DNA of 64,000 nt from Selaginella moellendorffii (GCF_000143415.4 NW_003314301.1:1103333-1167332), one strand, 5' to 3'; positions 22,401 to 53,599 are shown, numbered from the stretch's first letter. Notes: a model not told the origin generated them from the sequence alone. Translations and numbers: made by a program.

Positions 22401-25400
22401 TTGGTATGGCTAGTTACTACCGACGTTTCCAGCATAAGTTTGCAGAGGTGGCTATTCCTTTGACGCGGATGTTACACAAGAATGTGCCATTCGAGTGGAA
22501 GACGCCACAAGAGGAGAGTTTTGTGGCGCTGAAACGATTGTTGAGCGAGGCTCCAGTGCTTTGCATTGCTGATCCATCGAAACCTTACGAGGTGACATGC
22601 GATGCGAGTGGTTATGCACTGGGAGGAGTTCTCATGCAAGAGGGACAGCCTATTGTATATGAGAGTCGAACTTTGAATTCCGCCGAGCAATGCTATTCCA
22701 CATATGAGCAAGAGTTACTCTCTATTGTTCATGCTTTACGGACGTGGCGGCACTATCTTTATGGTGCAGTGTTTGTGGTGTTGACAGATCACAAACCACT
22801 TGTGTATCTCTTCACACAGAAGGAGTTGAACACTAGGCAAGCTCGTTGGATGGTCAAACTCATGGAGTTTGGGGAGTTTCCTATTGAGCATCGTCTGGGA
22901 AAATCAAATGTGGTGGCGGATGCTTTATCTTGTGTTCGTCATGTGACGACGTTACGAACACGATTTTGTTATCATTTGAGTAAGGTGGTCAGCGAGTTTG
23001 GGTAGTTGGTTGAGCATGCTCAGGCTCAGGATGCTGAGGTGGCCTCTTTGCGAGCCCAGATGGAAGCCCCTTTCTCATTGGTGGATGGGATTCTCTACTA
23101 CAATGGTCGTGTATATTTGCCACAGGTGGATGCGTTAATTACTCAAGTTTTATTCCACTATCATGATTGTCCAGAGGCTGGTCATTTTGGGGGGAAGAAG
23201 ACATATGAGTTGATTAAGCGCAACTTTTATTGGAGGAATATGAAGGCTGGTATCCTCAAGTATTGTAAATCATGCGAGTTTTGTCAGCGGGTTAAGGTGC
23301 CACAGGAGAAGCCGGGGGGACTTTTGCAACCTTTACCTATTCTTCAGAGCCGTTGGTGTAGTATCTCTATGGACTTTATCACTTGTTTGCCACAAACACA
23401 GAGGCAAAAGGAGCAAGTATGGGTCATAGTGGATCGGTTGACGAAGTATGTGCGGTTGTTAGCTCTTCGGAAGACTGTCACTGCCTCAGACTTGGCTGCG
23501 GTTTATTTGGAGAAGGTTTTTCCTGATTTTGGTTTGCCGGAGGACATCATTAGTGATCGAGATTCAAAGTTCACCAGTGGATTTTGGAAAAGCTTTGCAA
23601 AGGCTATGCAAGTGACTTTGAAACTTTCGAGTGGAGATCATCCTCAGACGGATGGGCAAACTGAGCGTGTGAATCAGGTGGTGGAGGATATGCTATGTTG
23701 TAGCATTGGTCAAAGGCAAGGGCAGTGGGATCTATATCTTCCGTTGGTGCAATTTTCTTACAACAATAGCCAACACAGTGGAACCAAGCTAAGTCCTTAC
23801 TTTGCCATGTTTGAAAGGCATCCTCGAACAACGGTGGAGTTGGGATTGCATTTGAGTAAGGACGTTCAAGATAAGCTTGATTCCGAGGCAACTGATCTGG
23901 CCACAAAACTTGATGAGATTCTGGTGGTGTGCAAACAGAATTTGCAAGCAGCTCAGGATAGAGCGGAGAAGTTTGCCAATGAGCATCGCCAATTCCGGGA
24001 ATATAAGGTGGGTGATCTCATCTTTGTGCGAGTGATCTTTCCATTAAGTGAGTGGCGGAACACCTTGGTGCCTTTACGGACAGGGAAGAGTGATAAACTT
24101 TCCCATTGATATGCTGGTCCATATGAAGTGCTAGAGCGCATTGGTAAAGCGGCTTATCAGGTGCGGCTGCCAGTTGGGGTGAAAATTCATCCGGTATTTT
24201 ATGTCAGCCAGTTGAAAGGTGTACTATCTCGGAGTGATGGGCCCAATGCCTTCTTGATGTATGGTTGTGGAAGATGGACCAGGAGCTTGAGCAGGATTCC
24301 CCAGAAAGGGTGATCACCAGTACAATTCATCCTTGGGACAAGGACTTTGTTGGGGGGGAAGAATTGTTAAGTGCCAGCTTTGACTACGTGGTCAACGTCG
24401 GTCAAAGGGAGGCTTAAGGGTATATTAAGGCACGTTAGGGTAAGGGATTTAACCTACCCTAGGGCTCACAGTGGAGCGGCGGCACAGTGGAGCTTTTGAG
24501 GTAGCTCGGGGGTGGTTGGGTGGTGAGGAACCTCAAGAGGTGGCGTAGCATAGTCTAGAGCAACTAGATCTTTGTCTTTTTGCACCGGATCATAATAGAT
24601 AACCTTTCCATTTGACTAAATATTGACCATTGTGTTTCTGGTGACATGATAAGATGTTTTCAACTTCGTATTTAGATTCACCACCCCACAACTTCTGGTG
24701 GCAGACAAATCTCCTCTTGACATGCAACATCTATAATGTAAGGAGCCAATAAATTGGTATGAAATACATTATAAATATTTGATATTTCCATAGGAAGATC
24801 CAACTAATAGGATATATCACCAATTCATTTTAAAACTATATTTTGGTATCAGCTTCCAAGACAAAGATCCCTTAATATATAAATTTCTAGAAAATAACCA
24901 CACCAGATAATCCTCAACTTGAGCATTCACACGTTCAATCTACCCATCGGTTTGAGGATGATAAGCTATACTAAACTTCAACTTGGTGTTGAGCAACTGA
25001 GATTGTGCCCCAAAACTTCCCCATCAATCTCAAATCTCTATTTGAGATCATCTCTTCGGGAAGACCACAAACCCACACTACTTCATGGAAAAAAACTTTG
25101 CTACTTACTTCACATTCACTATTTCTATAGTTGGAATGAAGTGTGCAATCTTCAACAACCAATCCACAACCACCATCAAAGTATCATAACCCTTAGAGTT
25201 CAGCAAGCAAGTGATAAAGTCAAGTATCACACTCTAAAATGGCCATGTCGGTGCTGGAATGCATTAAAACTTCCCAGCCTGCTTCTTAGTTTTGCGCTTA
25301 CATTGCTATGTAAGAATAAGCATAATCTATTACCTTCTATACTAGACAAAAAAAAACCCTTTTTCAATGAAGTAAGAGTTTTTCGTTTTCCACCATGTCC

Positions 25401-32720: not shown

Positions 32721-35700
32721 GGGAGACAAAAGTAATGGAAGTAGAGGTAAAAACATAGGGACGAAGAGGTACGGAAGTGAGAAGAATGGATGAAATATAA
32801 GGAAGTATGAGACAAGGGGATAAAGTCTCAAAATCACATTTAATATGATTATGTTACAATTAATCTATACCAAAAATGAGGTCAAAAGCTTGACTCAGCA
32901 TCACCCGCAATGACTACAATTCAAACTCGAGAATGCCCATATGCACAACTAAGTCTGCCTCATCCCATGCATATGCATATGTACGGTTGTTGCCATAAAG
33001 AATGAAAACTGGTTTTGCCACACAACGTAAATGTAGATGGCAATATGTGGCAATAGGTCAAGCAATAGAAGATAAACTCGAACTTGTATGTAAGCTTTTG
33101 AATTTAAACTTCCTGGGAGGTCACCCAACCTAATATTATTCAAACCCAAGGATGCCTAACCCCAAATATCCCAAGGCCTTTAACCAATTGGAAAAGGGGG
33201 TGCACTCTTATTCATGGGCCCTTTCCCTTTATATTTGAACCTCATAGATCGTCTCTCGAATAATTCCCTTTAGTTGCTTACAATTCACCATGCTTCCTTG
33301 TAAGTTCACGCCCTCGTGAACGAAAGCTGAGAGCCACAGCTCTCCCAAGAACCCTGTTCTCTTAACACCCTATGTAGCGCACATGAATTTGGAGCCATAC
33401 TTCAATCCCATTGCGTTACGAACAAGGATCTGGTACAATCCCACGAGCACCAGCTCCCCGTATCCAGCACCTGCACATAAAATGGTGTCAGACGGAGTCT
33501 GACACAATTTTGGCATACCGGTGGCCTAACGCGAGGAGGGTACTCCACCGACTAGAGTAGCGTGGAGCTTGGGCTTAGACCCAAGCCGGATGCAAAACAA
33601 GGAGCAACACAGCCCAGCAGGAGTCAAACTAATGTCTCAGGTGGTCGGACATGCATTCCAACCACTATCCCTACTATACATTTGGAACCCCCCACATCCC
33701 CCCCCCCCCTCTTTGAGGAACACACGCTTTGGGCTTTCACCCCAAGCCTCCCTTAGTACCAGGAGTTAGTCTCTGGGACAAACTCGAAACTTACTAAATA
33801 TGGAATGTCTTTAGATTGAGAATTTGAACACGGGACGAACACCATTGTGTTTAGGCTGATCTCTACATTCTATAGATATGCTAAATGAGCGAATCTAGAC
33901 ACTTTCCATAAATAGCATATGGGACCAAAATGAGACCAACACTAAGGGCATGATAGTAAGGGTGTTTAGCAGACACGGTAAGCTATCATTTAGTGATATT
34001 GAGGGACTAGTCTCAATACGTAGGGGTTCTTGATACTAGCAAGTGCAAGCTAATGACACGAGTTTCTCAAACCAGGCCGAGTATGCTCAACAAGAAACAC
34101 ATAAGGTTCCTACCTTATGTTTATCCGATTTAAGTACATGGTCATTGACTAGTTTCTCAACTAGCTCAAGTGGGAACAATAAAGGGAACCAACTGTACTG
34201 ACCTTCTACCGACATGGCAGTAAGGAAAGAGTGTCTATAAGGACTAGCCAACAAGTATCTTTCGACACCTGAAGTCACATTCGCGACACTCTCCCCCCCT
34301 TGGGGAAGATTGACGTCCTAGTCGATGTATACCTGAGTCTAGCAAACTGTCAAGGAAAAAATTTCGAAAGTTAACGGAAAGCACACTATGTGGGAAATAG
34401 ACTGACTTAAATGAGTTATGGAATGACCTCTCCTCTACGTCCAAAGACGTTAAGACTCAGACACCCTTTGGCCGTTGCCGATAAGGAAATGACTAATGGA
34501 GTTAGCCACCCTTGCTGCTTTGAGTACCACTCGGCTTACAAAGGAATGATACATCCCTGCCTACAGGGACATAGGGAGAAGGCCAAAGGCCCAACTGCCC
34601 TTGAGCAAGAAATCAACCCCGTCGAGAAGATTTAGACAACTATTATAAACTGGCAGATTAAGTTGTTTACACGACCACTCCCTTTTTCGAAAATGAGTCA
34701 TTGAGAGAGAGGCGGGGGCTTGTGATTAGTCTATAATAGTTATCCCCATGATTATAGATTGGACCCATGCACCGAAGTGCCAAAGTCAACTTGCCAAAAC
34801 TGACCCAAGTACGAATGAATGAAAGAAATGACACTTTGATTGATAGAAATATATTACTTTATTGATTTGCAAGATTTATTACAAGGTTTTTACAAAAATT
34901 AGTCTTTATTACTATTCTCATACTCCGTGACAAGCTCACGAGCATGTGTAAGATTCCTAAGAGGTTCCTAAGTTAATTCACAAGTTGGGTAACCTTTCCA
35001 CTTAACTAGATATTCCTTGGAATGACCACCATGAGCTTTGCGAGACAAGAGAATCACTTTGACCTCATACTCCATGTCACCATTCACAACATCCGGAGGG
35101 GGACGAATGTCCACAGAGCGATCCGCAGCAACATGATATGGTGCCAGTAAACTGAAATGAAACACATCATTTACATTGGACAACTCATCCGGAAGATCCA
35201 ACTTATAGGATACATCACCAACTTGCTTCACCACCCGATAGGATCCAACATATCTAGGCAATAACTTCCGAGATAAACATCCTTTAATGTTCAAGTTCTG
35301 GAAAGATAGCCACACTTGATCTCCCACTTGATAGGATATATCTTGACGATGCTGATCCTTATCATGTCAATACCTATCTTGAGTTTTGCCCATCGCCTCA
35401 GTAGCCCTAGACCAACCTTGGCGTAGCTGCTCCGCATAAGTCTCAACAGCCAGGACCAACATTTTGGATATAGGTTTCGGTACAACGATCTGTTGAGGAA
35501 CCCCACGAGCATTCCCTTGCAGCATCTCCCATGGAGAACAGTCTATAGCACTGTGAAATGTGTTGTTATAACATATTTCTACTGTATCTAAATGCTCAAC
35601 CCAATCGCGTTGGTCTGCCGTAACATAGTACCGCAAATAATCCTCAACTTGAGCATTCACGCATTCGGTCTGCCCATCAGTCTGAGGATGATAAGCTGTA

Positions 35701-38111
35701 CTAAATTTTAGCTTGGTACCAAACAGCTGGAACAATGTGCCCCAAAACTTCCCCGTAAACCTTGAATCCCTATCCGAGATCATCTCTTCGAGAAGACCAC
35801 GAACCCGCACGACTTCATGAAAAAAGAGCTTTGCTGCTTGTTTCACATTCACTATTCCCATAATTGGAATGAAGTGTGCAATCTTTGACAATCAATCCAC
35901 AACCACCATCAAAGTATCATAACCCTTAGACTTTGGCAAGCAAGTGACGAAATCAAGTGTCACACTTTGAAATGGCCATACTGGTGCTGGAATGCACTGC
36001 AACTTTCTAGCTTGCTTCTTAGTTTTATGCTTACATTGCTAGCATATAGAGCAGGAACGGACATAATCCGCTATATCACCTTCCATACCAGACTAGAAAA
36101 ATCCCTTTTTCAATGAAGCCAGAGTCTTTCGCTGTCCACCATGTCCCGCTGCTGGAACATCATGATGTTCCTGCAGAAACAACTGTTGTAGATCCTTAGA
36201 GGGAAGATACAATCTTTCTTGTTTATAGAATATAAGCCCATCCCGAACCAAGAAGTGAAGCTTTGCATTGGTGCGGTTAGCAACTTTTGCTGCCTCGCTA
36301 TCAGAGTTCTACTTCGACAACTCTGCACGGCATAAGATTGCTTTCGCCAATGAATCACTTCCATACGAAGCCCAAACGTCCTCCAACCAGTCCAAACTGA
36401 TTGCCGATATTGCCCAAAACTAAGCTTGACGATTGAACGCATCCGGAACAATATTGTCTTTACCAGGTTTATATATGATTTCAATATCATATCTAGAAAG
36501 CTTCTCTTGCCAACGAGTCTGCTTTGGTGTAAGCTTAGGCTGCGTAGCAAAGTAGCTTAGTGTGTTACTATCCGTATAAACCTTGGTATGTCCACCCAAG
36601 TAGTGTCTCTAGTGTTCCAGGGCCGACACTATAGCAAACATCTCTTTCTCATGTGTTGGCCATCTTTGTTGGGTCTCATCCAATTTCTTGGAATAAAACA
36701 CAACGGGACAACCATGTCACCTTAGTGTAACACCAACTGCTTTGTCACAATCTTGTTGTAACACGGCACCAATAGCATAACGAAATGCATCACAATGCAC
36801 TTCGAAGGGTTTATCAAGATCTGGGATCCTGAGAACAAGAACTGTAGTCAAGATCTCCTTCAACCATACAAAAGCACGCTAACAAGCTAGTGCCTAGTGA
36901 AACGGAATATTACTCTTCATCAACTCAGTCAACGGAAGAGTAATTCTTGCAAAATTGCAAACAAACTTGCAATAGTATCCCACCAAACCGAGAAAGGAAC
37001 GAATATCTGATACAGTAGTTGGAACTTCCCAGGACTTCACTACTTCCACCTTCTTTGGATCGACCTCAATTACGCCAGCACTAACTATATGTCCGAGAAA
37101 GTTTACGTGCAATTGTCCAAAAGCACATTTACTTTCCTTAGCATACAGTTTGTGTTCGCGCAACTTCTGAAACACCAGCTCCAAGTGTTTCAAATGATCC
37201 TCCAACGTTTTGCTAAATACTAGAACATCGTCGATGTATAGGACAACAAATGTGTCCAAATAATCTCTGAATATTCTATCCATCATAGTGTTGAACGTTG
37301 CCGGAGCATTGCATAACCCGAACAGCATGACAAGGAACTCATAAGATCCATACCAATCCTTAAAGGCTGTCTTCTCCACATCCTGATTTGCCACCTGTAT
37401 CTAATGATATCCGGACTGCAAATCAAGTCACGTAAAATACTTAGCCTTTAAAAGCTCTATTTCGTTAAAGTGGGATTTATTCAGTAAAATGGGACTAGGT
37501 ACAAATTTTCAAGTATTTGAAAATGACGTGAAATTATATGTTTTTTGTCCAGGGGCTAGACATATCTGGGGCATGGTGACTAGCGCGGTGACCTTATGTC
37601 CAGACTGAGTCCATCTAGTTGTATAATAAATCTCATTGTCAAGGTGAACAAGCCGAATCTGAAGCTAAAGAAGAGCGATGGCATGCGCGCACACACTATT
37701 TGTTTGTTCATTGAGCGTGTGGTGAGCTTTCCAAGATGAATATCATTCCTATTAGCCAGACATATAACTTAATGGTGAGAACATTTAGATATTATTCAAT
37801 GTTATCTTTTTCTAACGAATCTAATTGTGAAGGTGTAGCAAGAGGCATTGCTAGTCTGGAGAAGTCATTTAACTCATTTGACCCTTAGTGTATTTTCATG
37901 AAACTAAATAACATTCATATTATTAAGGAATTTCTCTAGTACCTTTTTTTTACGACATAGAGGCTTGCATTTCTTTCAAAGGTGATTTAGTAAAAGGCCT
38001 GAGGGCACATGCCATTCTATTTCTCATACCAGTATTAAGATATACTAGTGCAAAGGGAAAAAGGTATTTGGTGATCAAGTAAATGGCATGAGGGCACACG
38101 CCATTATAAGC

Positions 38112-38369
38112 CTAAGCGCTAGTGGACACCTCCTTTTTGGTACTCTCAGCGGTACTATCATCCTTCTCCGGGTCAGTTGTTTTGCTTTGGATTGTTGTCT
38201 CTGACGTTACTGGGGCGTTCTCGATAGTTGTTAATGTTGCCGTTTGTTCAGAAAAATGATCACCTGGAGTATAGTACGGGGAGTTTGGAAGACTTATATA
38301 TTCTACATCTTCACCTATCTCCTTCTCCGTCTCCTTTTCTGCCTCACTTACAGATTTTGTGCTTGCCAT
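38112..38369 (-). CDS. Possible small acidic, Thr/Ser-rich ORF inside the transposon
   Basis: MASTKSVSEAEKETEKEIGEDVEY...; coding-like composition in an otherwise AT-rich region; no recognisable domain. Confidence 0.3.
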   Translation of the reverse strand: MASTKSVSEAEKETEKEIGEDVEYISLPNSPYYTPGDHFSEQTATLTTIENAPVTSETTIQSKTTDPEKDDSTAESTKKEVSTSA

Positions 38370-39080
38370 GAGAACGCTCTTCACCCTAAAATATGGAGTT
38401 CGTTGTGTTATAAAAGGAAACCAACACACACGCTGCAAGGGAATGATGGTACATAAAGCACGTAAGCCCACAATATGGGTTTATGTGCCATTAATATGGG
38501 CCACACGCCATATTATTAGATTTATGCACGTGTGATTGGTAAATGCATATGTCACATCATCTTTGTTTTACCTCACACACTATATCAGGCCTAATGAACC
38601 ATATCACATGTGTGCACATGCTATATATATGGAGAAGTATTATGCAAGGATAGAAATTCAATGCATGATTGTGGAGAGCAATGGCATGAAGCCACATGCT
38701 AAATAACATTTTAGAGAAAGAATTAAAATAAAAACATGCAAACAGTACTAAGTGGACCAAGACTTAGAAGTGCACAATTGAATGAGGTATTTCTAATAAA
38801 TACTTCACTCACCTCATATAGGAATGGCTACCACTCTCAAATGGCGTATCGCCTCATGCCATCACCTCGCAATTTGTTATAACAATCCGATGAATTCATA
38901 TTCGGCTTGTTCACCTTGAACTTTAAGTAAGATTTGCTAGAACAACTAAGAATTTATACTTGTTATTTGTATCATCTCACCTAGGAATGGCGTAAGGCCA
39001 CATGCCATCACGCCTTCTCTGATTCAGATTCAGATTGTTCACCTTGAAATAAAATACATTAGAAACTTAGTAAAGGAATA

Positions 39081-42000
39081 TTAATGAATCTCACCTTGAA
39101 CCCGGGTTATGAATGCTCTTGCTGCATCTCTTGCATGGTCTGGCAAGGTGATGGTGGCACTCTGCTTCCACATCCAACCATGCACAACATTATCCACCGA
39201 TATGCTCATGCTGGGATCCCTTGGATTCAGCACCCATCTCTTTTCTAGGCAATCGTTCGTATATCCGGAACTTGGCTTGAACCACTCCACAGTTACATTG
39301 AAGGAGTTAGTTTCCGCGTCCTCCTCTGCATCAGTGATGCAGCGCCCCACCCATATCATTTGTTTTTTATTACTGGGTCTGACAAGCACGACCATTCCTT
39401 TGCAGACCTGTACTGGATTGAATGCTGAATCCGGCTTCTTGTTCCTCGGCCCACAATAGTGATCCTCAACATCGTTATTTGTCACTGCATTTCCAAAGGA
39501 CATTGTTCCGCTACTATCTGGTGCTCTGGGTTCTGGCCAAAAGGACTCTTCCAATTCTTCATATACAACCGGCCCATTTTGGATAGCAGATATAATCTTC
39601 TCCCAGTATTCGAGCAAAGGCTTGCACCTCTGAAAATAGGATTCTCCACCAAACACCAACCCCCTTTTCCAGAAGGCAATATGCTGTCTAATCCCGGCCA
39701 CTATACTTTCCTGGTCTTTGAGTCCATCCGGGTGCATCGGCCGTGGGGAACCCTGAGGAATCATAGGTTCCCCAGTTATGGGATCTCTCTTGAAGAGTTC
39801 AATGCCATCCACTGGCAGCCACACTGTGTCCCATTCTCTCATCTTGTACCTCATCACTGGAGCACCGTCACACATGCTGAAATGAAACTGAAGAGGCTTG
39901 GAGTGGCCAATCAGCGTTTCGAATCCGTCCCTGATGTAGCCTCTTACAAACCCCTTAAAGTCTGGAACCTCTGTCAGAAGTGCAGCTTCAACAATGCCTT
40001 TGATGCAATTTTGGAATTCATCGTAGAGTTGTGGGAGGGTGAGGACATTGGATCGCCGGAGGGACTCTGCCAGGTGACTGAACATGGCATCGACGTCTTC
40101 ATGAGTGTGCCCAACCATGAGAAAGCCAAGTGTAACCGTTTCAAATATGCCTTTGGCAACAAGCATCGCCAAGTACGCAAAGACGTACATGTTTTTGTTC
40201 TCACTGCCAGCATTGTCTGTTTGGAGCAGAAGATGGGGTGGAAGGCCACATCGGCCGCAAGAACTTCCTTGAGATTCTGCTTCGTTTGGATGAGGCTGTG
40301 CATTCACCGGGCGACCAGCCTCGTCGGAATGGCATGAGGCCTCACGTGATAACCCTACAATCTGACGGCCAACATATTCACTGGGATGGCATGGGGCCCC
40401 ACGCGATACTGCAAGCCTTTGCTCCTCCTCCAGCTGAACCCTGTATGGGGTTCGATCGACAAGGGCCTTATGCAAGGGTTGGCCGTTCAGCTCAGTCTGC
40501 GCACTTTGCAGAGACCTTAAGTGTTTTGCTAGGGACGCAATCATTATGTTTGCACCCCCGCCACCCCATAGAGGTACAAAGAAGTTCCCATAGTTCTGGG
40601 CACCATGCCCATGAGCGATTATGCCAAACAGAGACACAGGCAGCTGCATGGATGAAGAGATTGCCTTGGGGGCAGGATTGAGTCGAGGTAAGCACGTCTT
40701 TTTCTGGTCCATTTTGTCGTGGATGATGCAGAGGTAAGAGTCAGGTCTCTCCATGGAGAGAATCCTGTTATGATAATATGCAGTCCTGCAGCTTCTCTGC
40801 TCGATGTTGTGGTCGAGCCGCCTTCTAACCAACGTCTCTCGCTCTTGAGCGCTGCAAGAATTCTTCGACAAAGCCATTTTGATAGCAGTGCACTCGTCAC
40901 ACTTTGAAAAGCTGGAGTACTTTCCTATACTCACATCCCTGAACCTGTTGCTCCACAATCTACTAAATCTAGATTGGCTCAGCTTCCTGTAGCCATTACT
41001 CTGGAGTTCCCGATTCACATCTTCCAATATGGCCCCCTTGGTATATATGGAAGGGAGAACTCGTTGGGTGTCTCGTGTTCCATCTTCCAAGAGGCGGGTT
41101 TTATGTGGTTGCTGCTCGCTACATGTCTCGACAAACCTCTTGAAGATTGCCTCTCCATATACAACATGACCCCTGGTTTTGTGCGTACCGTCGTTCCCAT
41201 GGACTGCCTGTTGAACCCTTTGTTCCTCGAACTCAGTTTTGATTCTGTAGAATGTGGTTCGAGGGACTCCATAAATGATTCTCCATGCCTTCATGCAGAC
41301 CAAACCCCTCTGGAAGACCATGCCCCCCACCTGATGTTCTGAAGCATCAACAGATGACCGTAATGCCTCATACACAAAATTGCGAGCTGCCTTCCAGGAC
41401 AATGTCTTGTATCTTGCTCTCTCCTTTTCAATAGCATCCCAATCAGCATGTTGACAGCACCTCCTCTTGCAACAAGCAACTGTCGAGACCATTCGAACCT
41501 CCATCGCTATTTTTTGCCTTTTCGGTTCGTTGCTCAGATCCCTTTGGCTGCGCTTTAGGAAGGTGTACTTTCTTTTCCCATGAAGAGATGTTCTGTCATC
41601 AGTTGTAGTGGTGTTTGATTGTGAATCCTTCACATTCTCAAACACTAAGTGCCTCAATTTCCACCACACAATGCTTCCAATAGTCAGACTGTTTTCTTCT
41701 GTGTCAACAACCTCTAAAATCGCAACTCCAATATCATCCCAGCCCAATTCTTGATTAGCAACCGCATCTCTTGGATCGACAACTGTGGCTAAGCCCTCAG
41801 CTACCACCTCCCCCTCGGGGTTGTTTAGAAACACTTTTGCCTGAATCCATGTAGCACGGTTCTTAAAATCCACGGAGGGAACATGCGTCGCACTTGCGCT
41901 GTCCCCAACATCTGCTTTCTTCTAAAGATTTTTCAAGGCAACAACAACATTTACCCCGACGACCATCTCTCCTCGTTCAATAGCGACCACATTCCCATCG

Positions 42001-42149
42001 AAGACAGTCTCTACTGATACAGCAGCATTGCCTTCCCCAAGCCTTTGACAGTGTATAACAAAGTTCTGATCCATAGACACAAGGGTCCCTTTTGCAACTC
42101 TCTTCCCACCATTCAAAATGTAAACCTTTTCCCCAACCCTGAAGGCCAT
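39081..42149 (-). CDS. Sola-like DDD transposase (about 1,022 codons if the single in-frame TAG at 41922-41924 is read through or spliced out; 930-aa ORF downstream)
   Basis: Motifs FSKCDEC, IIHDKMDQKK, LLLQTDNAGSENKN, GFLMVGHTHEDVDAMFS; two related N-terminal beta-rich repeats (VAKGTLVS / VAEGLATV); upstream 75-aa ORF is in the same frame; splice acceptor just before the ATG. Confidence 0.85.
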
Positions 42150-42514
42150 TCTGAAAGTGCAGAAAAGAAGTTAAGACCATACAAAAAATGATTGGAGAAT
42201 GGCCTAAATCATAACATACCAAACAACCTCAATAGCATGAGGCCACATGCCATTATTCAAACATGCTATTGACACCCACGTGAAATTTCGCATTCACAAA
42301 ATTGGCATGAGGCCTCATGCCATTTTGATATACACACAGCTGCAGGCAAGTAAAAACATACATGACAATACGCTAGCCATGAAATTGCAAGGGCCCAAGA
42401 TGGCATGTGGCCTCATGCCATTTCTAAATGTGGTCCTAAGCCATTCCATGGTGAACATACCAGGAAGCACAAGTGCCGAATATCAAGAGGAAGCGGTAGC
42501 CACACCAAAGACAG

Positions 42515-42650
42515 TGCCGCTCGCAACACCGCAACTACTCGTAGCGCCGCTCGCAACACCGCAACTGCTCGTAGCGCCGCTCGCACAAACTGCCACTCGC
42601 ATAAACTGCCGCTCGCAATGGCGCTCGCAATGCCGCAACCGCTCGTAGAC
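42515..42650. repeat. GC-rich ~30-bp tandem repeat (CCGCTCGCAACACCGCAACTRCTCGTAGCG) upstream of the transposase
   Basis: Two near-exact units plus degenerate ones; a second CGCGCTCGCA-rich tract at about 43775-43925. Confidence 0.75.
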
Positions 42651-44132
42651 GCATAAACCACAGCCCACAACGCCGCTTACACAAGCAGCGCTCACTGCGC
42701 TCAGCGGAACCAAGAACACGGCGCACAAAAATGATAGACCTAGGAATGAGTTCGAAAATTCAAAAATAACACACGCTTGAACGTCACATCAAATCCTCTG
42801 ACAAACCAGATCTTATGATTCCTCTGACAAATTTCAAACTGAGTAGCTTCTAGACTTTGCTGTCGGAGGTTGAACTTTGTCACATCATGTCCTTGCCTCG
42901 ATTCAGCTGTGCCATGTCAGTGATTCGAACTTTGCCATGCCATGTCAGCGATCCGCGCCAAGATTATTCGCCGTGTAAAGGAATAATTATGCTGTGTGTG
43001 CGTCCATTTATGGCAATATAAGGCCACACGCCATTCAAAGAATAATGCTCGACATAAGGCCACACGCCACCACAGAATAATGCATTTTTTGGTGCATTTT
43101 TGGGTTCAAAATTGCATGAGCCCACACGCTATAAAGTTTATCTTTGCCAAATAGAGAAAAGTTTATCTGTGTCATGTGAGGTAGTTACAGTCCTTTGTGC
43201 TCGGCATCTGCCTCTTGCAGCATTTGCACTGAAAGGGAATTTTTCTCCATTCAGCATTTGGCCCTGAAAATGGCATGCGCCCACACGCCATTGAAGGAAT
43301 AATGCCACAGGACGCCTGGATTTTTGGGTTTAAAATGTTTAGGGTTTTTTGGGTTTTTTCAAAATATTTTGGGTCCAACGTTTTTTGGGTTTCTTTGGTT
43401 CAAAATTGCATGAGCCCACACGCTATAATATTGATTTGAGAGAAAAATAGAAACAGATAGAATTTCTTTATTTAGCTGAACATCTGCCATTTTTGGAAAT
43501 ACAAGATGCTTTGGAATATCCAATCATGCATGGTATAAATATAGCGAGGGTATTAAATGATATCCCAATCATGATCTTTCTTTTGGATTTCGCGTGCATG
43601 CAGTCCGAGGAATGATGACGTTGCGGATTTCTTTTGGATTTTGCGTGCTTGCATGCGCGCGGCAATCCAGAAATTAATGGTGGCGCCCAAGTCTGAGGAA
43701 TGATGACGTGGCGGGATTACCAACCGTTGTGACATTTCGCACGTGTGAGGTTAGGTTTTGCATTTTGCTTTGTACTCGCGCTCGCACACTCGCGCTCCCG
43801 CTCGCATCGCGCTCCCACTCGCGATCACGCTCACTTCTCTACAGGTTTCTCGTGTGCATTGGCGTCCACTCGCGCTTGCATCACACTCGCGCTCGCATCG
43901 CGCTCGTGTGCATCGGCGTCCACTTCAAGACACACCCAGTTTGTAACTTCGCCGCCAACTCCGCCGCCCACTCCGCCACCCACACGCAGCCCACTTGGCG
44001 TCCCGGGAGATTTCAGCGCCACTCTCCAACTGTAAGTGGCAGAGTAGCCTTGCTGCTACGATCCGCTGCACACACAGTGCACATTCGCCAGCGAGTCCGG
44101 CCTCGATTGTCACGGCCTCCATTCGGCTTCAA

Positions 44133-47100
44133 ATGGTAAGTCTTTTAGACGAAGTAGAAAATGGCATGAGGCCACATGCCATTCAGTAGCAACATTGGCA
44201 TGCACCGATTGGGCTCTCGAGTGCAGTCCGGTTACAGATGGCGTGTAGCCTCACGCCATCTTAGGATGCAGCCTCAAGACATCTGATGCAGTGGTGAATG
44301 GCGTGTGGCCTCACGTTATTTCCAGCTGCTAGCTTTTCATCTGTCAGCTCTAATTGTTGTGCATTTCTGAACAGGCGAGGAATTGCGTTCTTCTTCCAGC
44401 CACTGTCAATGTGGATGCAGAGAAGGGGGAGGAGCTCACCAGTTGGACTTTCGGGATGGAAGGCGAGGATCTGATGCTGTACAACACAGATGGTGGGAGA
44501 AAAGAATGCATGGGGATCCTCATCCAAGTGACAGACACTCCATGCAGTTTCATGCAAGAATATGGACTGGCACTTGTGGTAGAGACAGCGTCCGCCTTCA
44601 AGATCCACCTTGCACATCCTAGCGGCTTCCCGGAGGGGGGCAGCGGCTATAAGGAATTCCTAGAGGGAGCTAGGGAGAGGTTGTCCAGGAGGCCCACAAT
44701 TTCAAAGACGCTGCGGGTCTATGAAGATCACATGGAATCCACGGACCTCACCTACGGCGATGTTCAAAAACTATATTCCAACATTGAGCCGTTGAGAGTG
44801 CCTCCAGTTTGCGAAGCGAAGGGGAAGGGGGTCGATCTGGAAACTACCCCGAAGCAGAAAAGGGTGGTCAAGCTCAAGCCGACGTCCGACTCTGCTGCTC
44901 CAAAAAAGAAGCTACTCGGTGATGCCATTGCCTCGGGTTCGAACACTACACCCACCAAAAAGAAGAGCCGCAAAGAGCAGAAAGAGCAAGAAGAGGCAGC
45001 AAAAATCGTCGCAGATAATAGTACTTGTTACTATTCCAACAAAGTATATACAATCGACGTGAGCCGTATCGAGATCCAAAGCAAATACAACCACAGGCTA
45101 GTATCTGATGAGTGGGTGGAGAAACTGAAGCAGAAGATGCTGGCAAGTCCAGTAACACCCGACATCGCAGACGTGATCCCCTACTACCGAACAATGAAGG
45201 GCGAGACGAGGTTTCCAGACTTGATCAATAGGAAGGTGTTGGACGATCAGAACATCCGGTTCTATGCCGTCTCCGGGCAGCATTCTAGCTTGGCGATGCA
45301 ACAGATAGTTGTGGATATTATGGTGGGCGAGGAGGTGAAGAAAGTCTTCAAGACAAGAGTTGTCCGCCTGATAAAAGGCAACTCGCCCCTCCGATCTATC
45401 ATATACATCTCCCACGCGCAGAATGTCAAGCAAGAAACGTGCTACAAATCGGGTCTGCACGAGACATTGGCACGAACACGGAAGCTCTGGGTTCAACTGA
45501 AGAAGCCACAAAAACCAGGACAAGGACGTGCACTAGCAACTAGCTCCTGGCAGGTAAGCCTCGTTGCATGTGGCATAGCATGTGGCCTCACGCCATTTCC
45601 ATTGCAGGAATTCTCGAGTCTTCTCTCGAAAACACTGGGGGTCAATGACACACTCAGCATCCATAACATTCTACTCGCGACAAAAGTTGTTTTTGACAAA
45701 TGGGTAGATGTGCTAAGGAGGTACCATGACGGGGAGTTGCTAAACTCAATGGGTGTGGAGGACGGCCGGAAGCCCAATGATTTGAAGCTCAACGCCTTGC
45801 GTTTCTCGCGGTCTCTAGACGACAACGACCTTCTGACAGTGGCTAATGCTCTTCTACGTGGTGAGGTAGTCTTCAACAAGACCAAAATGACTCCCGGCCA
45901 TATTGTGACATACGAGGACTTGTGCACGACTCTGAGAGCTCGTGCGCTATTGAAGGATTGGATCTTCGAGCAAGTGGCCGTGGCGAGGGTGAGCATCGAC
46001 ACCACGCAAGAGATGATGGAAGAGCTGGAGTTGTCAAATGAAGACATCGACGAGTACGTGAAGGGGGCCCCCAAGTTCATCGATTTGCTGCGGGATGCCA
46101 CGAAAAGTAAAGCTGAGAAGTTGGATCAGTATCCAAATTTCATTAAGAGGGATGTCGACCGCCGGCTTCAGAAACAGCTCGACCCCGCAGCAGAGGCCTA
46201 TCGAGAACCTTACCGGGTATACGTGAATTCGGATGAGGATCAAAGGTGGAGGAGCATCGTTTCCCGCGGAGATGAGCAGGTCAAGAACATCTTTTGTGTG
46301 ATGGACTTCACAAACGAGGAGATCACTCATGCAGACGAAGTCAGCTCCATCATTGACTTAATAGTGGGACTTGCGGAGGTGGAATCTTCAGTCCACTATA
46401 TGATCTACGACTCCGAATCCTATCACAAGTTCTGGAAGGCCTTGAACGAGGTGAAGGCTCGGTTGAAAGGCAAGAAGATGCGGGAGATCCATGGGATAAT
46501 GGCTAAGAAGAAGATACCGACGAATGTCCGCATCTTCACAGTCGCCCTTGTTATTGGTCCTGCAGCAGAGTGGGACTGGAGTGACTTCCCAGCTTCGTTC
46601 AATAAAGCCGATCGAATTGATCTGAGGGAGGTCAATTTACCCGTGCCTGAGGAACTGAAGACGGCTATGGAGCTTTCGAATCCAAAGAAAGCTCCAGGTG
46701 CAGCATGGGAAATGCTCAGCTGGGTCTTCAACGCAATAGCGGGTGACTCCAAGGGCAAATGCGTTGTCGAGTACAACTGCGGCGGACTATTCTTTCGAGC
46801 CGCACTACTCAAGGGTGTCCCGTGTGTTGCAGTGACAAACTCCATTGAAGAGGTGACTTCAATGGAGCATATAATTACAGTTGCCAAAGAAAAACAGTAT
46901 CTTCTCTACGAACCTGGTGAGTACGCACTTTAAGTTTAAATGTTATCTCACAAGCTCTGTATGCAGGAGCGTGGCCACCCCCAGATGCTGAAACGGCGTT
47001 AACAGCTACTGATGTTAGGCCGAGGTCACAACCTGCACAAGGTAAGGTCACGTGAGGCCTCACGCCATTTTGATTATAGATCGTTGTGAATATTCAGACA

Positions 47101-49738
47101 CGAGGACTGAAAAGCGCACTGGTGGCGCGTCGAAGAAGGACAAACAGACAAGCAATAGGAAAAAAGGAGGTACAAATTATATTTGCAATGGCGTGTGGTC
47201 TCATGCCATTCCTTGCAGGAGACACTTCTTCAAAGGCAAAACAGGCAAGCACCAGCCAAGCTCAAACTGACAGTGGTCATAAAAAGCGAAAGCACGTTGG
47301 ACAGTCGTCGGGATTAGAGGCGTTTGATTCGAAAAGGAAGAAGGGCAACGAAAAGATGATAGGTAATGCCTCGCGGTTATGGCGTGTGTGCTCATGCCAT
47401 TCATTGCAGATCAAGGGCTGAGTGAAAGGAGCCAGTCACCACCTTCTGACTCAGATTCCTATGGCGGACTCCCCTTCCCCAATCTCAATGGAGAGGTACA
47501 ATGGATGAGGGATGCTTTTCAAGTCAGGGCCACGTTTTTCTCATCTCGTCGTCTTCGAAGGGTGCAAGAACGTGCAGAAACCATGTTAAGACAGTCGGGT
47601 GAGGATACGGTCCTAGGTCACGCATTAAAACAGGCTATGGATGTCTTGTATTTTGAGATGGAGACTCGGCCAGATGATTTTTCCAAGATGGTCCTGGAAA
47701 AACAAGCAATCCAGCCTGAGCAGCCTATGGAAGAAATGCAAGAGGGGGATGAGGAGCCAGAGAAAGATAATGAGCAGGAAGAGCAGAAGGACGAAGAGGA
47801 GGACAAAGAAGAGGAGGACGAAGAAGAGGAGGATGAAGAAGAGGAGGACGAAGAGGACTTGGATGGTCCTCACAATGGTGACGATCACAATAACGACGAT
47901 GACGATGATGACGACGATGGCTAGCCTGAGGTGGCCAAAAAGCAGCGGAGGAAGGTCATACAAGACAAACCATCAGGTAAATAATAGTACATCCATTCCT
48001 AACCTTTTACCATTTCTAACATTATCCATGTAGGTCGCAGAAGAAATGGTAAGTAGAGATTATTCAGTTGAATTAAGATACAAACTCTAGCCTTTAGTGT
48101 CGAGGAAGGATAGTGCCAAGCAAGGGTCGAAACGTATGTCCAATCCTTCAGAATCAGCAGTGCACCCAAGTGATATCGGTCCTAGTTCCTCAATAGCAGT
48201 TGATGGTAAATACAGTATAGTCGATTCAATGTGCTAATGAGTTTGTTTTTAGTAGCACGGGAGGATACCATCTCAATCGAAGGGAGATATTTGGACATGC
48301 ATATGGATCCGCCAGTGGACTCTACTTGCCTGCAAGAGTCATCAGAGCTGGTGGAGGCTACTATCCATATCAACGCCAAGCAAGCTGACCACGCTCCACT
48401 TGATGCTGCCCATACCACTGAGTCAATCTTGTCCACGTATCCAACTGACGGTGACCAGGCGCCATTGGACCCGCATGAGGCCACCCCAGCCGCCGAGCCG
48501 GTCGTATCCTCATTTCCAACGTGTGCCCAATCGTCTGACTACGCGCCGTTGGAACCTCCCTACACCGCCCCTGCTGCCTGTTCGGTCATGTCCACTTTGC
48601 CAACGGAGGCACCAGCTGAAATGGCGTGTGATCACACGCCATCGGAACCACCCCATGCCACTGTTGAGCCAGTTGTACCAGAGTCTACAGCTGAAATGGC
48701 ATGTGCCCACACGCCATCGGATGCGATTGACCCCACATTGCAGAGGAGAGTATTTCCGCCCTTCACGTTTCCTCGACCAAAACCCTCTGAACGACCATCG
48801 GGAGCACCATTCGCTAATATTGTAGATGGTAAAATTGACTTGTACCATTTTTTATGCTGACGCATTTCATTTCAGAGTCACGGCGAAAGTACTGTATCAT
48901 TTTTGATCTGAACGGTGTCCTTTTCTCCCATGAGCGTGGCTCGTCCTCGAATGTCACTGCACCCTCCAAAGCCTGCGGTCGCAAGTTGGTCAAAAGAGAC
49001 AGATTCACATTAATCACACGGGAGAAACTGCGGGATCTAATAATGACCATGCGACACTTAAAACAGAGGGCCGGGTTCAATTTGCAATTCGGAGTTTGGA
49101 CATCCATGATGCGCCACAATGCATTAACGTTGCTACAGATGATGCACGATCAGACGCGAGTAATATTACCATTTGACTTTCTCCTAACGCAGGAGGATTG
49201 CTTGACTATGGTCCATGTGAGGGGTAGCAAGCCCATCTTCGTCAAGGCAGAGGCTGTAGTGATGAACCGGACTGCTAGGTCAAGTGAAATCCTCATCATC
49301 GATGACTCGCCGATTAAAACTGCAGCGAACACGCACACATATGCAGTGCACCCCATCTCTTGCAGTATGGAAACTAGGGAGAAGAAACCGTATGTTCTGG
49401 GGGACCTTGCAAAACGGCTTGAAGCGATGGTGATAGAGAACCGGCCAGTCCAGGAGGTGGCTGCAGAAATCAACCAAATGGCAGATGGAACGGTATATCA
49501 GAAGCCATTTGATCGGACAGACACCAGTCATCATTTATGGCATGTATATTGTCTAGCCAAGCACTATCCGCATCTCCATAATCTGCTCAACCGGATGGGT
49601 TCTTCGACCACTGAACATGAGCGTGGACGTATTAGAGAAGAGATGGCATTACTATTGGGTTTAAATCCTGATAGTGTGGAGAGTGATGAAATTCCAAGAT
49701 TATTGTATAGGCGTTGGAGGCAAAAAATAACAGTCTGA
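44133..49738 (+). CDS. Transposon cargo gene, predicted 11 exons (44133-44135, 44375-45553, 45608-46916, 46967-47041, 47098-47169, 47219-47362, 47410-47976, 48034-48048, 48098-48205, 48253-48828, 48876-49738), about 1,636 aa: ParB-like, degenerate DNA amino-MTase-like, acidic linker and FCP1/NIF HAD-like regions; one internal TAG at 47922-47924
   Basis: All introns are GT-AG and keep the frame (47-57 nt, except the 239-nt first); YTIDVSRI...NHR...VEKL...FYAVSGQHSSLA; KCVVEYNCGGLFFRAALLKGVPCVAV; IIFDLNGVL...GVWTS...LIIDDSPIK. Confidence 0.72.
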
Positions 49739-52700
49739 GATGGCATGTATTTATTTAAAAATGTAACTTATTATGGCATGGGGTTCCATGCCATTGTATT
49801 AATATTAAAAGACAATTCTTTGAGAGGATTTGCATTATACTAGAAGTGTTATAGCATGTTATTGGAAGTCTACGAAGTTGTTTTATTAATAAGGGGAAAG
49901 TAAAGATTGAATGGGGACTTGGGCTCCACCTAGACTCGGAGCAACTGAGCCAATATTAAAAGGATGGAAAGAAATTGGACGACGATGACAAGGAGAAGAG
50001 AGAGGTGAAGCAGTGGCAGGGGGAGGAGAAGTGATTGAGTAGATATTTCCTTGTTTAAAATAAAATGGCATGTGCCTCAATGCAGTTGAATTTTGTTATA
50101 TTTATATACTATATAAAGGTTTGGAAACCTTATTTTACAAGTGGGATAATGACAATTCCCACTTTAACGAAATAGAGCTTTTAAGAGTTGGTCAAACAAG
50201 TCATCAATATGAGGCAAAGGATAACTGTTTTTAACCGTGATCTTGTTGAGTGCCCAATAGTCAATGCACATCCTAATAGTTCCATCCTTTTTCATAACAA
50301 AAAGGACCGGCGCTCTATAAAGTGACTTGCTTGGTCAGATATGACCTTTGTCAAGAAGCTCCGTGAGTTGCTTCTTGAGTTCAGCCATCTCTTTGATGTT
50401 CAACCGATAGAGCTTTTGTAGGTGGTTTAGAACCCAGAATAACCTCAATCCGATGATCAACCTCACGGCTAGGAGGTAGCCCTGGCGGCAAATCCTTTGG
50501 AAAGATATCCTGATTCCTCACCAACAACTCCAATATCCTCTTTGGTACAGGATCAACCCCGTCGCCGATTCGAACTGAGTCACCAACACCCTCAGCTTCC
50601 ATCACTTGAACCCAAAAGGTCTGACATCCCCTCTTAGCTGCTTTTTGAGCGGCCCTCGCAATCAGGAACTTTGCATCCCAATCCTTTAAGGAACGCTTTT
50701 GCAACTGAAAGGATACATCAAGACATCCTTCTGACTTCAATGTGATATGACTTTGTCTAGCACCATAAATCCTTTTTATATACTTGTTGAAGAAATCCAT
50801 ACCAAACACTATCTAAAAATCTGGTATCTTCAACACTAAGTCCACTCTTTCTTTCCACTTGGATATCTTTATTGGAACATCACTCATAAACTTTCTGGCT
50901 ACTTGCCCACCTTTCTCAAACTAGAAGTGCATAGGCGACATTTGCTCAGCATTCAATCTTAACAACTTAACTAAGTCTTCAGATATCATGTTGTGTGTAG
51001 CTCCCGTGTCAATCATGACTCGGATTCGGTGTCCACGGACAAAGCCTACTAGATACATTAACGGATCAGTATTTGCATTGACTACATGAAAAGCTTGAGG
51101 AAAGCAACGAAAGTTACTCACCTCTTCTTCCTCATAGTCTGCATTGACCAACTCGTCAACCCCTTCAGCTTTACCACCACCGTCTTCCCTCATGACATTA
51201 ACCCGAGACCTTGTCTTATGCTTGTTAAAACATTCCAAAGACCTATGTCCCGACTCTCCACAATGGAAGCAATGACCCACACTACCTATTCCGCTAGGAG
51301 CAGGTTTTGCAGGTTGCTGCTACTTGCACCCACCAGGAGGAAGAACAGAGGGCCTAGGACCAGAAGAAGCTATTGGTGGTCTCCAACCACCGCCACCTTT
51401 GTTAACCGTTGCTTGTGAGCCTCCAGAGCGGAACCTGCCTTCCACCCTCTATTTCCGATCACCTTGTTTATTCCTAGAATTTTTATTCTTATCCGAGTTA
51501 CCAACATATGATTGCTGATATTGTTCCATGAGCGAGTGACTAAAGGCAACTTGCTGCGCTACACTCCAGGTACGTCTTTGGCTTAAACTTCAAAATCTCA
51601 TTACAAGAAAGTGAACTTAAACCCTCTAGTTAATAACTCCGAGCATCTTTGTCACTCATATTTGCAATCATAATGCGCTTCTGAGCAAATGCATTAACGT
51701 AATGCATGAGATCCCCTCGTGCAACCGAGGGCAACTGCAGAACTTCATCATCCTTAGAACTCGAAGAGGAGTCCGGTTGCTTAGGCTTAGCTGGTTTAGC
51801 TGCCTCAGCTTCTTTCTTCCTCTTCTTGTTCTCCTTCTTCAATTTGCGGACCTCCCTTCGCAAATTCTCAATCTCGACTTCCTGAGCCGTACGTTGTAAC
51901 GCCGCAGCATCTGGCTCTTCCTCTTCCGACTCAGCCTCAGCCTCTTCCACAGCATCTCTAGTAGGAGTTTCCTCCTCTCGATTCACCCGTCTAGAGATTT
52001 CAGCATCATCAGCACGGTTCCTCTTCACCATCCTGCTAGCTGCATGCATGCCTCTATTAGTAACTGAACATGCATACAATGTTCTTACCGAATGGTGCTA
52101 TCCAACTAATCCTACATAGGTCACTTCAGATCTACTAGAAAAGTCTCTACGTATGCAACTTGAGTTAGAAAATCCGACAAAAGTTGGATAGGAATCGCTG
52201 AGACAATCCTTTGATACCAAATGTAGCACACTTGAATTTAGAGCCGAACTCCAAGCCCGTTGCGCTACGAATAAGGGTCCGGTACAATTTCACGAGCACC
52301 AGCTCCCCGTATCCAGCACCTACACGCAAAATGGTGTCAGATAGAGTCTGACACAATTTTGGCATACCGGTGGCCTAACGCGAGGAGGAGGGTACTCCAC
52401 CGACTAGAGCAGCGTGGAGCTTGGGTTTAGACCCAAGACGGATGCAAAATAAAAAGTGACACAACCTAGCAGAAGCCAAACTAATGTCTCAGGTGGTCAG
52501 ACATGCATTCTAACCACTATCCCTACTATACATTTGGAACCCCCCACAGGCCCCCCCCCCTTGAGGAACACATGCTTTGGGCTTTCACCCCAAGCCTCCT
52601 TTAGTACCAGGAGTTAGTCTCTAGGACAAGCTCGAAACTTACTAAATATGGAATGTCTTTAGATTGAGAATTTGGACACAGGACAAATACCATTGTGTTC

Positions 52701-53599
52701 AAGCCGATCTTTACATTCCGTAGATATGCTAAATGAACGAATCTAGACACTTTCCATAAATAGCATATGGGACCGAAATGAGACCAACACTAAGGGCATG
52801 ATAGCGAGGGTGTTTGGCAGATACGGTAAGCTATCATTTAGCGATATTGAGGGACTAGTCTCAATACGCAGGGGTTTTTGATACTAGCAAGTGCAAGCCA
52901 ATAACAGAAGTTTCTCAAACTAGGCCAAGTATGCTCAACAAGAAACACATAGAGTTCCTACCTTATGTTTATCCAATTTAAGTACACGATCATTGACCAG
53001 TTTCTCAACTAGCTCAAGTGGGAACAATAAAGGAAACCAACTGTACTGACCTTCTGCCGTCATGGCAATAAGGAAAGAGTGTCCATAAGGACTAGCCGAC
53101 AAGTATCTTTCAACACCTGAAGTCACATTCATGACACCCTACCCCTCAGGTCGAGCCCAGCGGGAGCAAACTGGACCAACCAGATGTCAATCAATATGTG
53201 GTGTGATTCCCCTAGCCAACCAACAGTGTCGAACCCAACACCTCTCTAATACCAAATGTAAGCTCATGAATTTGAACTTCCCAAAAGGTCATCCAACCCA
53301 GTACTATTCAAACTTAAGGACGCTTAACCCAAATATCCCAAAACCCTTAACCAATTAGAAAATAGGGTGCACTCTTGTTCATGGATCATTTCTTGAGTCG
53401 TTCCCTTTGGCTGCTTACATTGTATCAACTGATACATAGAGAATAATAGGCGACCTCTTGTTATAAACACGAGCTTGGAAAGTAAACATTGGATGAATTA
53501 ATGCCAAATGAACCCCTTGATGATACTCCCAAAAGAAAGATGGAGGGGTCATTGACTTATTCATGCAAAGTCCCTCCATTACTCACATGACTCTTTATT

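Follow-up and report, generated by a model that had tools for sequence, protein, structure and literature searches.

We analysed a 64,000-nucleotide stretch of the Selaginella moellendorffii genome (GCF_000143415.4, NW_003314301.1:1103333-1167332), referred to below as the window, in which a cut-and-paste DNA transposon carries about 25 copies of a 22-bp palindrome alongside two divergent genes, one for a transposase and one for a long accessory protein. The transposon spans 12,729 bp (37452-50180, no strand assigned) and is delimited by inverted ends, a flanking duplication and contigs that skip it. Its left terminal inverted repeat is a perfect 24 bp (AAGCTCTATTTCGTTAAAGTGGGA; 37452-37475, plus strand), the right one lies at 50157-50180 (minus strand), and the target-site duplication TTAA occupies 37448-37451 on the left and 50181-50184 on the right—the end structure of a cut-and-paste DDE/D transposon. 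The flanks vary between copies: TATA opens the right flank of another copy, and TTAA is missing from one left flank. The inner motif of the ends, AAGTGGGA, returns at 50139 and, as AAATGGGA, at 37487, and occurs nowhere else in the element; it is the natural candidate for the transposase's own site. Among the public sequencing runs whose contigs were compared with the window (X-numbers), DNA contigs of X1 and X3 join 37446 directly to 50180, skipping exactly the transposon, X3 shows different flanks at both transposon ends, and contigs cover 30 of 30 bins of the element in X1, X3 and X10, mostly at ≥95% identity in X1 and X3. The transposon is therefore young and multi-copy. Members of the Sola superfamily produce a 4-bp target duplication, which is TTAA-specific in Sola3, and we presume the present element to be Sola-like from its motifs (QxDN, GHTHEDxD) and its DUF7869 transposase.

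The pattern ATGGCRTG-N6-CAYGCCAT, allowing up to two mismatches, matches the window 23 times, always between 37678 and 49794, where 0.05 matches are expected and 100 shuffled windows reach a maximum of one. A symmetric matrix trained on these 23 copies recovers 27 sites above 8 bits, 25 of them above 15 bits, all within 37678-50086; the inside count is partly circular, which does not apply to the zero sites above 8 bits in the remaining ~50 kb. The expectation from Markov nulls is 0.15 sites per 14 kb, and motif density was compared with the rest of the window and with the flanks of related loci. Two further half-sites (…CCACACGCCAT) lie at 38501 and 43024. Information content falls to ≤0.15 bits from two bases beyond the 22-mer, so the flanks are unrelated, the exceptions being local duplications at 43097/43391 (63 nt, 81%) and 48606/48681 (41 nt, 85%). 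A sequence-only reading of this DNA had described about 25 copies with differing flanks that are not segmental duplicates and had proposed a matrix scan for enrichment limited to the transposon family, and within the window these expectations hold, apart from the few local duplications. Its picture of a fixed 22-bp length with fixed outer arms also stands; its freely varying central bases do not, since the half-site consensus is ATGGCRTGWGG and 46 of the 50 half-sites have G10. In 15 of 25 sites, positions 9 and 14 carry the same base (A twice or T twice), which gives the consensus a slight polarity; this polarity flips at the middle of the element (left 7:2 in one sense, right 1:5; p 0.04). 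Helical phasing is absent from the spacing between neighbouring sites. Tandem repetition and segmental duplication were rejected as readings of the set, as were a CRISPR-like array (spacer length is not constant) and miniature inverted-repeat transposable element (MITE) insertions (flanking duplications were not seen and the length is fixed at 22 bp).

The sites, none of which is assigned a strand, begin in the left non-coding arm with palindromes 1 (37678-37699, 226 bp inside the left end), 2 (37994-38015), 3 (38083-38104), 5 (38681-38702), 6 (38841-38862) and 7 (38987-39008), found by both pattern and matrix, together with palindrome 4 (38603-38624; matrix, 19.6 bits) and a half-site at 38490-38511. 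Palindromes 8 (40329-40350) and 9 (40386-40407), both found by pattern, are coding and share one variable, low-confidence loop of the transposase. The divergent intergenic region holds palindromes 10 (42232-42253, upstream of the transposase start), 12 (42400-42421), 13 (43111-43132), 14 (43270-43291) and 15 (43405-43426), supported by pattern and matrix, palindrome 11 (42302-42323; pattern), which in other copies runs on into a further unit, and an interrupted site with a duplicated half-site (43013-43070; matrix, the half-site at 43049 scoring 11.6 bits), where 28 bp are missing in X3 and X10. Palindromes 16 (44161-44182), 17 (44238-44259) and 18 (44298-44319), all matched by pattern, fall in the putative first intron of the accessory gene, and four more occupy short predicted introns of that gene: 19 (45575-45596, 54-nt intron), 20 (47047-47068; matrix, 56-nt intron), 21 (47188-47209; pattern, 49-nt intron) and 22 (47379-47400; pattern, 47-nt intron). 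Palindromes 23 (48621-48642) and 24 (48696-48717), matched by pattern, are coding and share a duplicated Pro/Ala-rich stretch. Near the right end lie palindrome 25 (49773-49794; pattern and matrix) and a weak site (50065-50086; matrix, 12.4 bits) that ends 94 bp inside the terminus. Two smaller features adjoin these sites: in the left non-coding arm, a 25-bp inverted repeat (96%) at 37639-37663 / 38895-38919 and 39024-39047, next to palindromes 1, 6 and 7; and, behind 42324 in other copies (loose ends in X1, X2 and X3), a 12-bp palindrome AGTGGTACCACT followed by an extra 22-mer unit, which the window copy lacks.

The placement of the sites is far from even. On the predicted exons, coding DNA makes up 63% of the element and holds only 4 of the 25 sites (p 2e-6), and within 44375-49738 introns make up 8.5% of the sequence and hold 4 of the 6 sites (p 7e-4); the four coding sites are confined to the low-confidence variable transposase loop (by predicted local distance difference test, pLDDT) and the duplicated Pro/Ala-rich stretch. 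Fisher's test finds no covariation of the arms at the variable 6/17 pair (p 1.0). At the CpG position the 50 half-sites, which are not independent owing to shared ancestry, read CA 28 times, CG 20 times and TG once, and this CA:TG ratio of 28:1 (p 1e-7) does not fit simple CpG decay. Between copies, units have been gained or lost at 42324 and 43045-43081; among the 40 variants listed for 42150-44400, the strong sites contain one (the permitted C/T at 43127) and the weak site one, a deficit that is not significant. Because coding DNA is avoided and the half-sites vary independently, the 22-mers look like protein operators, and it is very probable that they are binding sites for a protein encoded by the element itself. 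Readings in which they are RNA hairpins, sites for a host factor or neutral by-products of local duplication are disfavoured and seem quite improbable. Three of five short palindrome-containing intron candidates do fold better than shuffles (z -1.7 to -3.0), as a hairpin would, against which stand the other two, which fold no better, and the variable pair, which lacks compensatory change and leaves an A.C mismatch on the plus strand in 9 of 24 sites. The gain and loss of units, and the tandem site arrays of related elements (periods 24, 46-50 and 114), would suit by-products of duplication, a view at odds with the unrelated flanks. A fixed host factor is hard to reconcile with palindromes that differ in sequence from lineage to lineage at constant length, and the zero sites in 50 kb of host DNA tell against all three.

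The accessory gene (44133-49738, plus strand) is predicted by frame continuity to comprise 11 exons and ~1,636 codons, with one internal TAG at 47922-47924. Removal of nine GT-AG introns (47-57 nt) leaves a single frame from 44354 to 49738 interrupted by that stop alone, and a further in-frame junction would link an ATG at 44133, which immediately precedes a donor, to 44375, giving a first intron that holds three sites. Introns 1-5 are placed at 44136-44374, 45554-45607, 46917-46966, 47042-47097 and 47170-47218, and introns 6-10 at 47363-47409, 47977-48033, 48049-48097, 48206-48252 and 48829-48875, near-equivalent alternatives existing for the last four. Retaining any of the three frame-shifting palindrome introns produces an early stop; the fourth palindrome intron is in frame, but constitutes an insertion relative to the homologues, several of which end there. 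The splicing is thus deduced from the reading frame; splice joints were not seen in run X20, which is RNA by guess only. A first homologue search with the accessory protein gave no match, and later searches returned 16 and 12 proteins, 22-30% identical, the named ones from Riccia sorocarpa; two of the 16 (P0046 and P0048, P-numbers denoting homologue proteins) were dropped as spurious repeats.

Four domains were assigned on this product: a ParB/sulfiredoxin-fold nucleotide-binding domain (45023-45442; model pLDDT mostly 78-94), a helical domain (45443-45934) that aligns structurally with the DNA-binding domain of ParB, Noc and KorB, a degenerate S-adenosylmethionine (SAM)-binding Rossmann half-domain resembling N6/N4 DNA methyltransferases (46697-46916; Z 5-6, pLDDT 50-69), and a NIF/FCP1-type HAD phosphatase domain (48876-49399; Pfam PF03031, E 1.2e-5, above cut-off), all on the plus strand. 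The structure model covers 44960-46930, was built from 22 sequences and has a mean pLDDT of 62.9 and a predicted template-modelling score (pTM) of 0.44, its N-terminal part being confident. Foldseek ranks Noc, ParB, sulfiredoxin and KorB first, the top hit being Noc bound to its site (E 2.7e-3), and viral ParB/Spo0J-like proteins match at E 5e-4 to 8e-4. In an unbiased wide structure search PadC (Z 9.7), KorB (9.1) and the pNOB8 ParB (8.2) came out on top, and the top 14 in a VIA re-alignment were ParB, Noc, PadC, KorB and pNOB8 ParB (Z 8.7-11.3), most spanning both the nucleotide-binding and the DNA-binding domain. The alignment with ParB reaches Z 11.3 over residues 28-324. For the predicted N-terminal domain, the ParB/sulfiredoxin fold is supported by Z 9.7-10.8 at a root-mean-square deviation (rmsd) of 2.3-3.1 over 98-99 residues (Caulobacter ParB 7bm8: Z 10.8, rmsd 2.3, 98 residues); alignments of the helical domain extend to model residue 324-332 (Z 9.0-11.3), with an rmsd of 5-13 owing to domain orientation.

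Model residues 580-657 resemble SAM-binding lobes at low confidence (Z 5-6), and Riccia accessory homologues match N6_N4_Mtase at E 0.004-0.014, below cut-off. SAM motif I (D/E-x-F-x-G-x-G) reads VEYNCGG in the window protein and LDFFSGG in the Riccia homologues. DPPY/SPPY is the catalytic motif of N6/N4 DNA methyltransferases (PF01555); it was found neither in the window protein nor in its homologues, and its likely place, in a low-confidence part of the model, reads VMDFTN. The methyltransferase-like lobe is probably catalytically dead. The last exon encodes the NIF phosphatase, whose motif reads DLNGV against the family's DxDx(T/V), the first Asp being kept; in homologue P0059 a NIF domain is likewise fused to the corresponding middle region.

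The transposase gene (DUF7869; 39081-42149, minus strand) includes a 930-aa open reading frame (ORF) at 39081-41873. In ORF numbering, the aspartates D386/D389, D553 and D593/D595 are invariant in 34 aligned sequences, the alignment having taken in 33 of 43 homologue matches, of which the named ones come from Riccia and Physcomitrium. Residues 357-627 of the model (pLDDT 78.6) adopt an RNase H/DDE fold with Z 8-9 to integrases, Mos1 and IstA, so that an RNase H-fold transposase with an acidic triad is present. A premature stop at 41922-41924 interrupts the window copy and is a sense codon in all four of the runs compared. A C-terminal chromo/BAH-like barrel (39081-39500, by structure match) and N-terminal beta-barrel repeats (41640-42149) may be chromatin readers; in homologues of the transposase the latter match PF26133 and, weakly, Tnp1/En/Spm (PF03017). 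These matches, together with several helical N-terminal domains in the model, would suit an alternative in which the transposase is the palindrome-binding protein, acting in end assembly and self-activation in the manner of the CACTA TnpA and AtMu1 proteins, the ParB-like gene being separate cargo. Transposases can act as sequence-specific activators (10.64898/2026.08.24.746577). We regard this alternative as unlikely, as the ends have a motif of their own, AAGTGGGA, unrelated to the palindromes, and TnpA and AtMu1 bind termini, whereas most sites here lie kilobases inside the element.

Related elements bear on both genes. A metagenome scan supplied the best 80 of 501 transposase-bearing loci, 62 of them distinct (L-numbers); selection was by transposase, and the loci are in a decayed state. 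Viral contigs yielded no relatives. A GGCC-class palindrome, AAYRYYTRGTGGCCACYARRYRTT, is carried by a large clade whose sister is the Physcomitrium protein P0031; a matrix for it, iterated on those same loci, gives 608 matches in 952 kb, where 599 kb of shuffled sequence give 14. At least three such sites are present in 40 of the 62 distinct loci and in 34 of the 36 loci of at least 8 kb. In the 23 loci with a placeable terminal motif, 89 sites fall in 57 kb inside the right ends against 8 in 151 kb beyond them, and none was found in 39 kb before nine left ends. Separate branches carry other palindromes, namely TTTKKCCATATGGMMAAA in L001 (13 copies), AAATCTARCAYRTGYTAGATTT in L021 (9) and CCCACGGGTGWWCACCCGTGGG in L024 (10), as does L048, which is outside the tree (GGTTTGGGTCGNNCGACCCAAACC, 7 copies), with nulls of ≤0.2 in each case; the palindromes of the relatives are thus 22-24 bp long and lineage-specific. 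Core arm positions show no covariation within the relatives' elements. In L050 and L043 the arrays have a decayed ParB-like gene next to them, remnants of NIF are present in L007, L050, L037, L070 and L076, and the right ends of L007 and L076 adjoin TTAA; an all-against-all tblastx of the loci was dominated by nucleotide-level similarity. As further observations, the 11.3-kb relative L007 (1202-12482) holds 41-43 sites, among them one head-to-tail array of period 24 (5891-6457) and another of period 50, upstream of a divergent decayed NIF gene, and L024 (59-342) and L048 (12-555) show near-perfect GC-rich 22-bp palindromes in arrays of period 47 and ~77, directly upstream of transposase genes.

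Taken together, the confinement of the sites to one transposon, their independent half-sites, the relatives' own palindromes and the predicted ParB-like fold support the earlier suggestion of a dimeric-protein operator belonging to a transposon family. The binder is probably the ParB-like protein, because its predicted fold matches dimeric proteins that bind palindromes, the ends carry the distinct motif AAGTGGGA, decayed ParB-like genes lie beside arrays, and in red algae a ParB-like gene accompanies inverted-repeat arrays under an unrelated transposase (10.1101/2025.02.11.637652). On balance we lean towards reading the 22-mers as parS-like sites on which the element's own ParB-like protein loads, likely for self-regulation or anti-silencing; in broader terms, recognition and regulation of the element's DNA by the element itself are likely to run through a borrowed system of sites and clamp.

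Several observations weigh against this interpretation. GERRxR is the phosphate-binding motif of ParB (PMC11790492), and the accessory protein reads SGQHS in its place, keeping the box-I Arg and a later Asn; GQH(S/T)xxA appears in 16 of the 18 rows listed and the arginines are absent in all. The protein is therefore best described as one predicted to work like ParB, Noc or KorB rather than as a canonical member of the clamp family, and its use of cytidine triphosphate is doubtful because the arginine patch is missing. Sequence-level ParB matches were not found in Pfam, PHROGs, NCBIfam or the PDB, and the Foldseek E-values against the PDB all exceed 0.001 for a model of pTM 0.44. Some relatives show no repeated palindrome: of ten loci seeded by eye, L005 yielded one site only, and none was found in L002, L003, L015 and L042 (3-4 kb contigs) or in L023. 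The outer arm positions 1, 2 and 5 covary within relatives (z 8.3, 3.0 and 3.3), and in 16 of 23 relatives a distance of 73-77 bp separates the end of the last site from the right terminal motif, a hint at a role at the ends. Among the 36 long related loci a ParB-like remnant is present in 2, any accessory remnant in 6 and none in 30, and L049 (4.3 kb) and L068 (5.4 kb) possess both ends, a transposase and sites with no accessory match. Finally, 87 of the 122 places at which X3 differs from the window read A>G or T>C, such that the window copy has changed mainly by C>T/G>A; the premature transposase stop belongs among these changes, and from their character the window copy has probably been methylated despite carrying the sites.

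The short transposase-only relatives L049 and L068, which keep their sites, and the fixed end spacing (the right-hand interval above, and 90-97 bp on the left in 5 of 9) are also the comparative evidence for the transposase as binder. Against this, choosing loci by transposase over-samples transposase-only elements, and L076 (4.65 kb), which retains a scrap of the accessory region, fits a deletion derivative. Because the loci are decayed and transposase-selected, gene loss and action in trans could explain relatives that have sites and lack the gene. The same conserved spacing, the length of the 12-kb element and the ability of canonical ParB to bridge and condense DNA (PMC11790492) would accord with a ParB-like protein that compacts the element and joins its ends for transposition, with no role in transcription. 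This we consider improbable, given that the densest arrays, here and in relatives, lie in the divergent promoter region and the 5' introns, and that fused phosphatase and methyltransferase-like domains better suit roles in chromatin or transcription. The greater part of our confidence in a ParB-like binder accordingly attaches to regulation or anti-silencing as its main role rather than end pairing, the two not being exclusive.

Under the loading-site interpretation, the accessory protein would bind each 22-mer as a dimer, and the bound protein might close and slide, gated by nucleotide, as KorB and VirB do. It would thereby coat the element from the promoter, the introns and the ends, marking it as self, and its fused NIF phosphatase and methyltransferase-like lobe would be cargo brought to the element's chromatin. 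The expected outcome would be that the two divergent genes stay active against host silencing and the ends stay accessible, with short relatives that have sites and lack the gene served in trans. A wider version, in which a widespread land-plant transposon clade runs a ParB/parS-type system with family-specific 22-24-bp operators, matching clamps that slide through plant chromatin, delivery of a CTD-type phosphatase and a methyltransferase-like domain that keeps the entire element active, and ends licensed also in trans, is speculative and, in our judgement, rather doubtful.

Systems of this kind have already been proposed in print, untested, for algal transposons. The giant Sola element Sola1-1_Ec32 of the brown alga Ectocarpus (PMC12477816) encodes an accessory gene with ParB-like and N4/N6 methyltransferase domains, proposed to bind and modify its own sequence; by its description it resembles the present element in placing a ParB-like accessory gene on the strand opposite the transposase, and differs from this land-plant element, which has a degenerate methyltransferase lobe and a fused NIF phosphatase. 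The available text of that paper has no match for 'palindrom' and mentions no palindromes for Sola1-1_Ec32. In the red alga Bostrychia, Plavaka (EnSpm) elements carry PAG3, a ParB-like accessory protein, with inverted-repeat arrays, and self-binding was proposed there without test (10.1101/2025.02.11.637652). The pairing of a ParB-like gene with palindromic or inverted-repeat sites is thus shared across unrelated transposon superfamilies, whereas PAG3 elements have a 2OG oxygenase effector and tandem arrays beside the gene in place of single sites across introns, promoter and ends. ParB-HTH-fused Dam methylases have been mentioned in chlorophytes and chytrids (PMC4738411). We found no land-plant case of a ParB-like transposon protein with its own sites in the literature searched, which covered subscription papers and supplements thinly. 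New here are the land-plant setting, the NIF fusion, the exact dispersed operator, operators that differ between lineages while keeping one length, and the constant spacing of sites to the ends.

Functional parallels come from plants and bacteria. VANC of the Arabidopsis VANDAL elements (PMC5735166) is an element-encoded anti-silencer with family-specific motifs that are non-coding or intronic and gained by local duplication; the 22-mers share this placement and the gain and loss of units between copies, but the VANC motif is a 9-bp non-palindromic sequence in one orientation, found in Mutator-like elements, and a ParB fold is not reported in the text available. The CACTA TnpA and AtMu1 transposases likewise pair family-specific clustered motifs with a bound element protein and hypomethylation (10.64898/2026.08.24.746577), differing from the sites described here in that binding is terminal and the protein transposase-derived. 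Among bacterial systems, KorB loads, slides and regulates transcription at a distance (PMC11790492), and Shigella VirB loads at virS, slides and regulates at a distance as an anti-silencer (10.1101/2023.06.01.543266). The predicted two-domain fold and the palindromes scattered over a mobile element recall ParB-parS, Noc-NBS, KorB-OB and VirB-virS; the differences are the absent GERRxR arginines, the lack of a ParA partner, the eukaryotic introns and the fused effectors. In length, too, the 22-24-bp transposon palindromes differ from OB and parS sites, which are 13-16 bp.

The self-binding of transposons by ParB-like accessory proteins, guessed at in two 2025 algal genome papers, is now directly testable in plants: the handles are an exact operator consensus, a predicted full gene and a young element present in many copies, others of which have an open transposase frame, and specificity swaps can draw on six or more lineages in which operators of equal length differ in sequence. 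If the loading-site interpretation is true, it would describe a way of self-recognition or anti-silencing that has no relation to VANC or TnpA, with a bacterial clamp on eukaryotic chromatin. The wider, clade-level version would, if true, be the first case of a sliding clamp acting as anti-silencer in the nucleus of a eukaryote and would supply orthogonal protein-operator pairs as a natural library. Were the transposase the binder instead, 25 internal dyad sites would still be unusual for a transposase.

The transposon is itself inserted in a Ty3/gypsy retrotransposon (33372-53145, minus strand; long terminal repeats at 33372-34297 and 52221-53145, 91% identical), whose reverse transcriptase it interrupts, both flanks sharing one frame. 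The observed/expected CpG ratio is 0.64-1.06 in 42-47 kb against 0.40-0.71 in the flanking retroelement, a comparison confounded by the younger age of the transposon, with its maximum of 1.06 in 43-44 kb. In the divergent promoter region each gene is preceded by an outward-facing, CpG-rich tract of short repeats (CGCTCGCA-like; 42513-42700 and 43765-43920). A 38-bp segment (44031-44068) immediately upstream of where the accessory gene putatively starts is common to very-high-depth unrelated sequence, with contigs diverging on both sides; this segment presumably resembles the 3' end of large-subunit rRNA, and an Rfam search gave no match to it or elsewhere within the element. Elsewhere in the window (2652-6795, 14711-18351 and 19910-24109) lie two fasciclin-domain ORFs, pentatricopeptide-repeat (PPR) genes and a second Ty3/gypsy element; some of the PPR frames overlap on both strands, and the content is ordinary for a plant.

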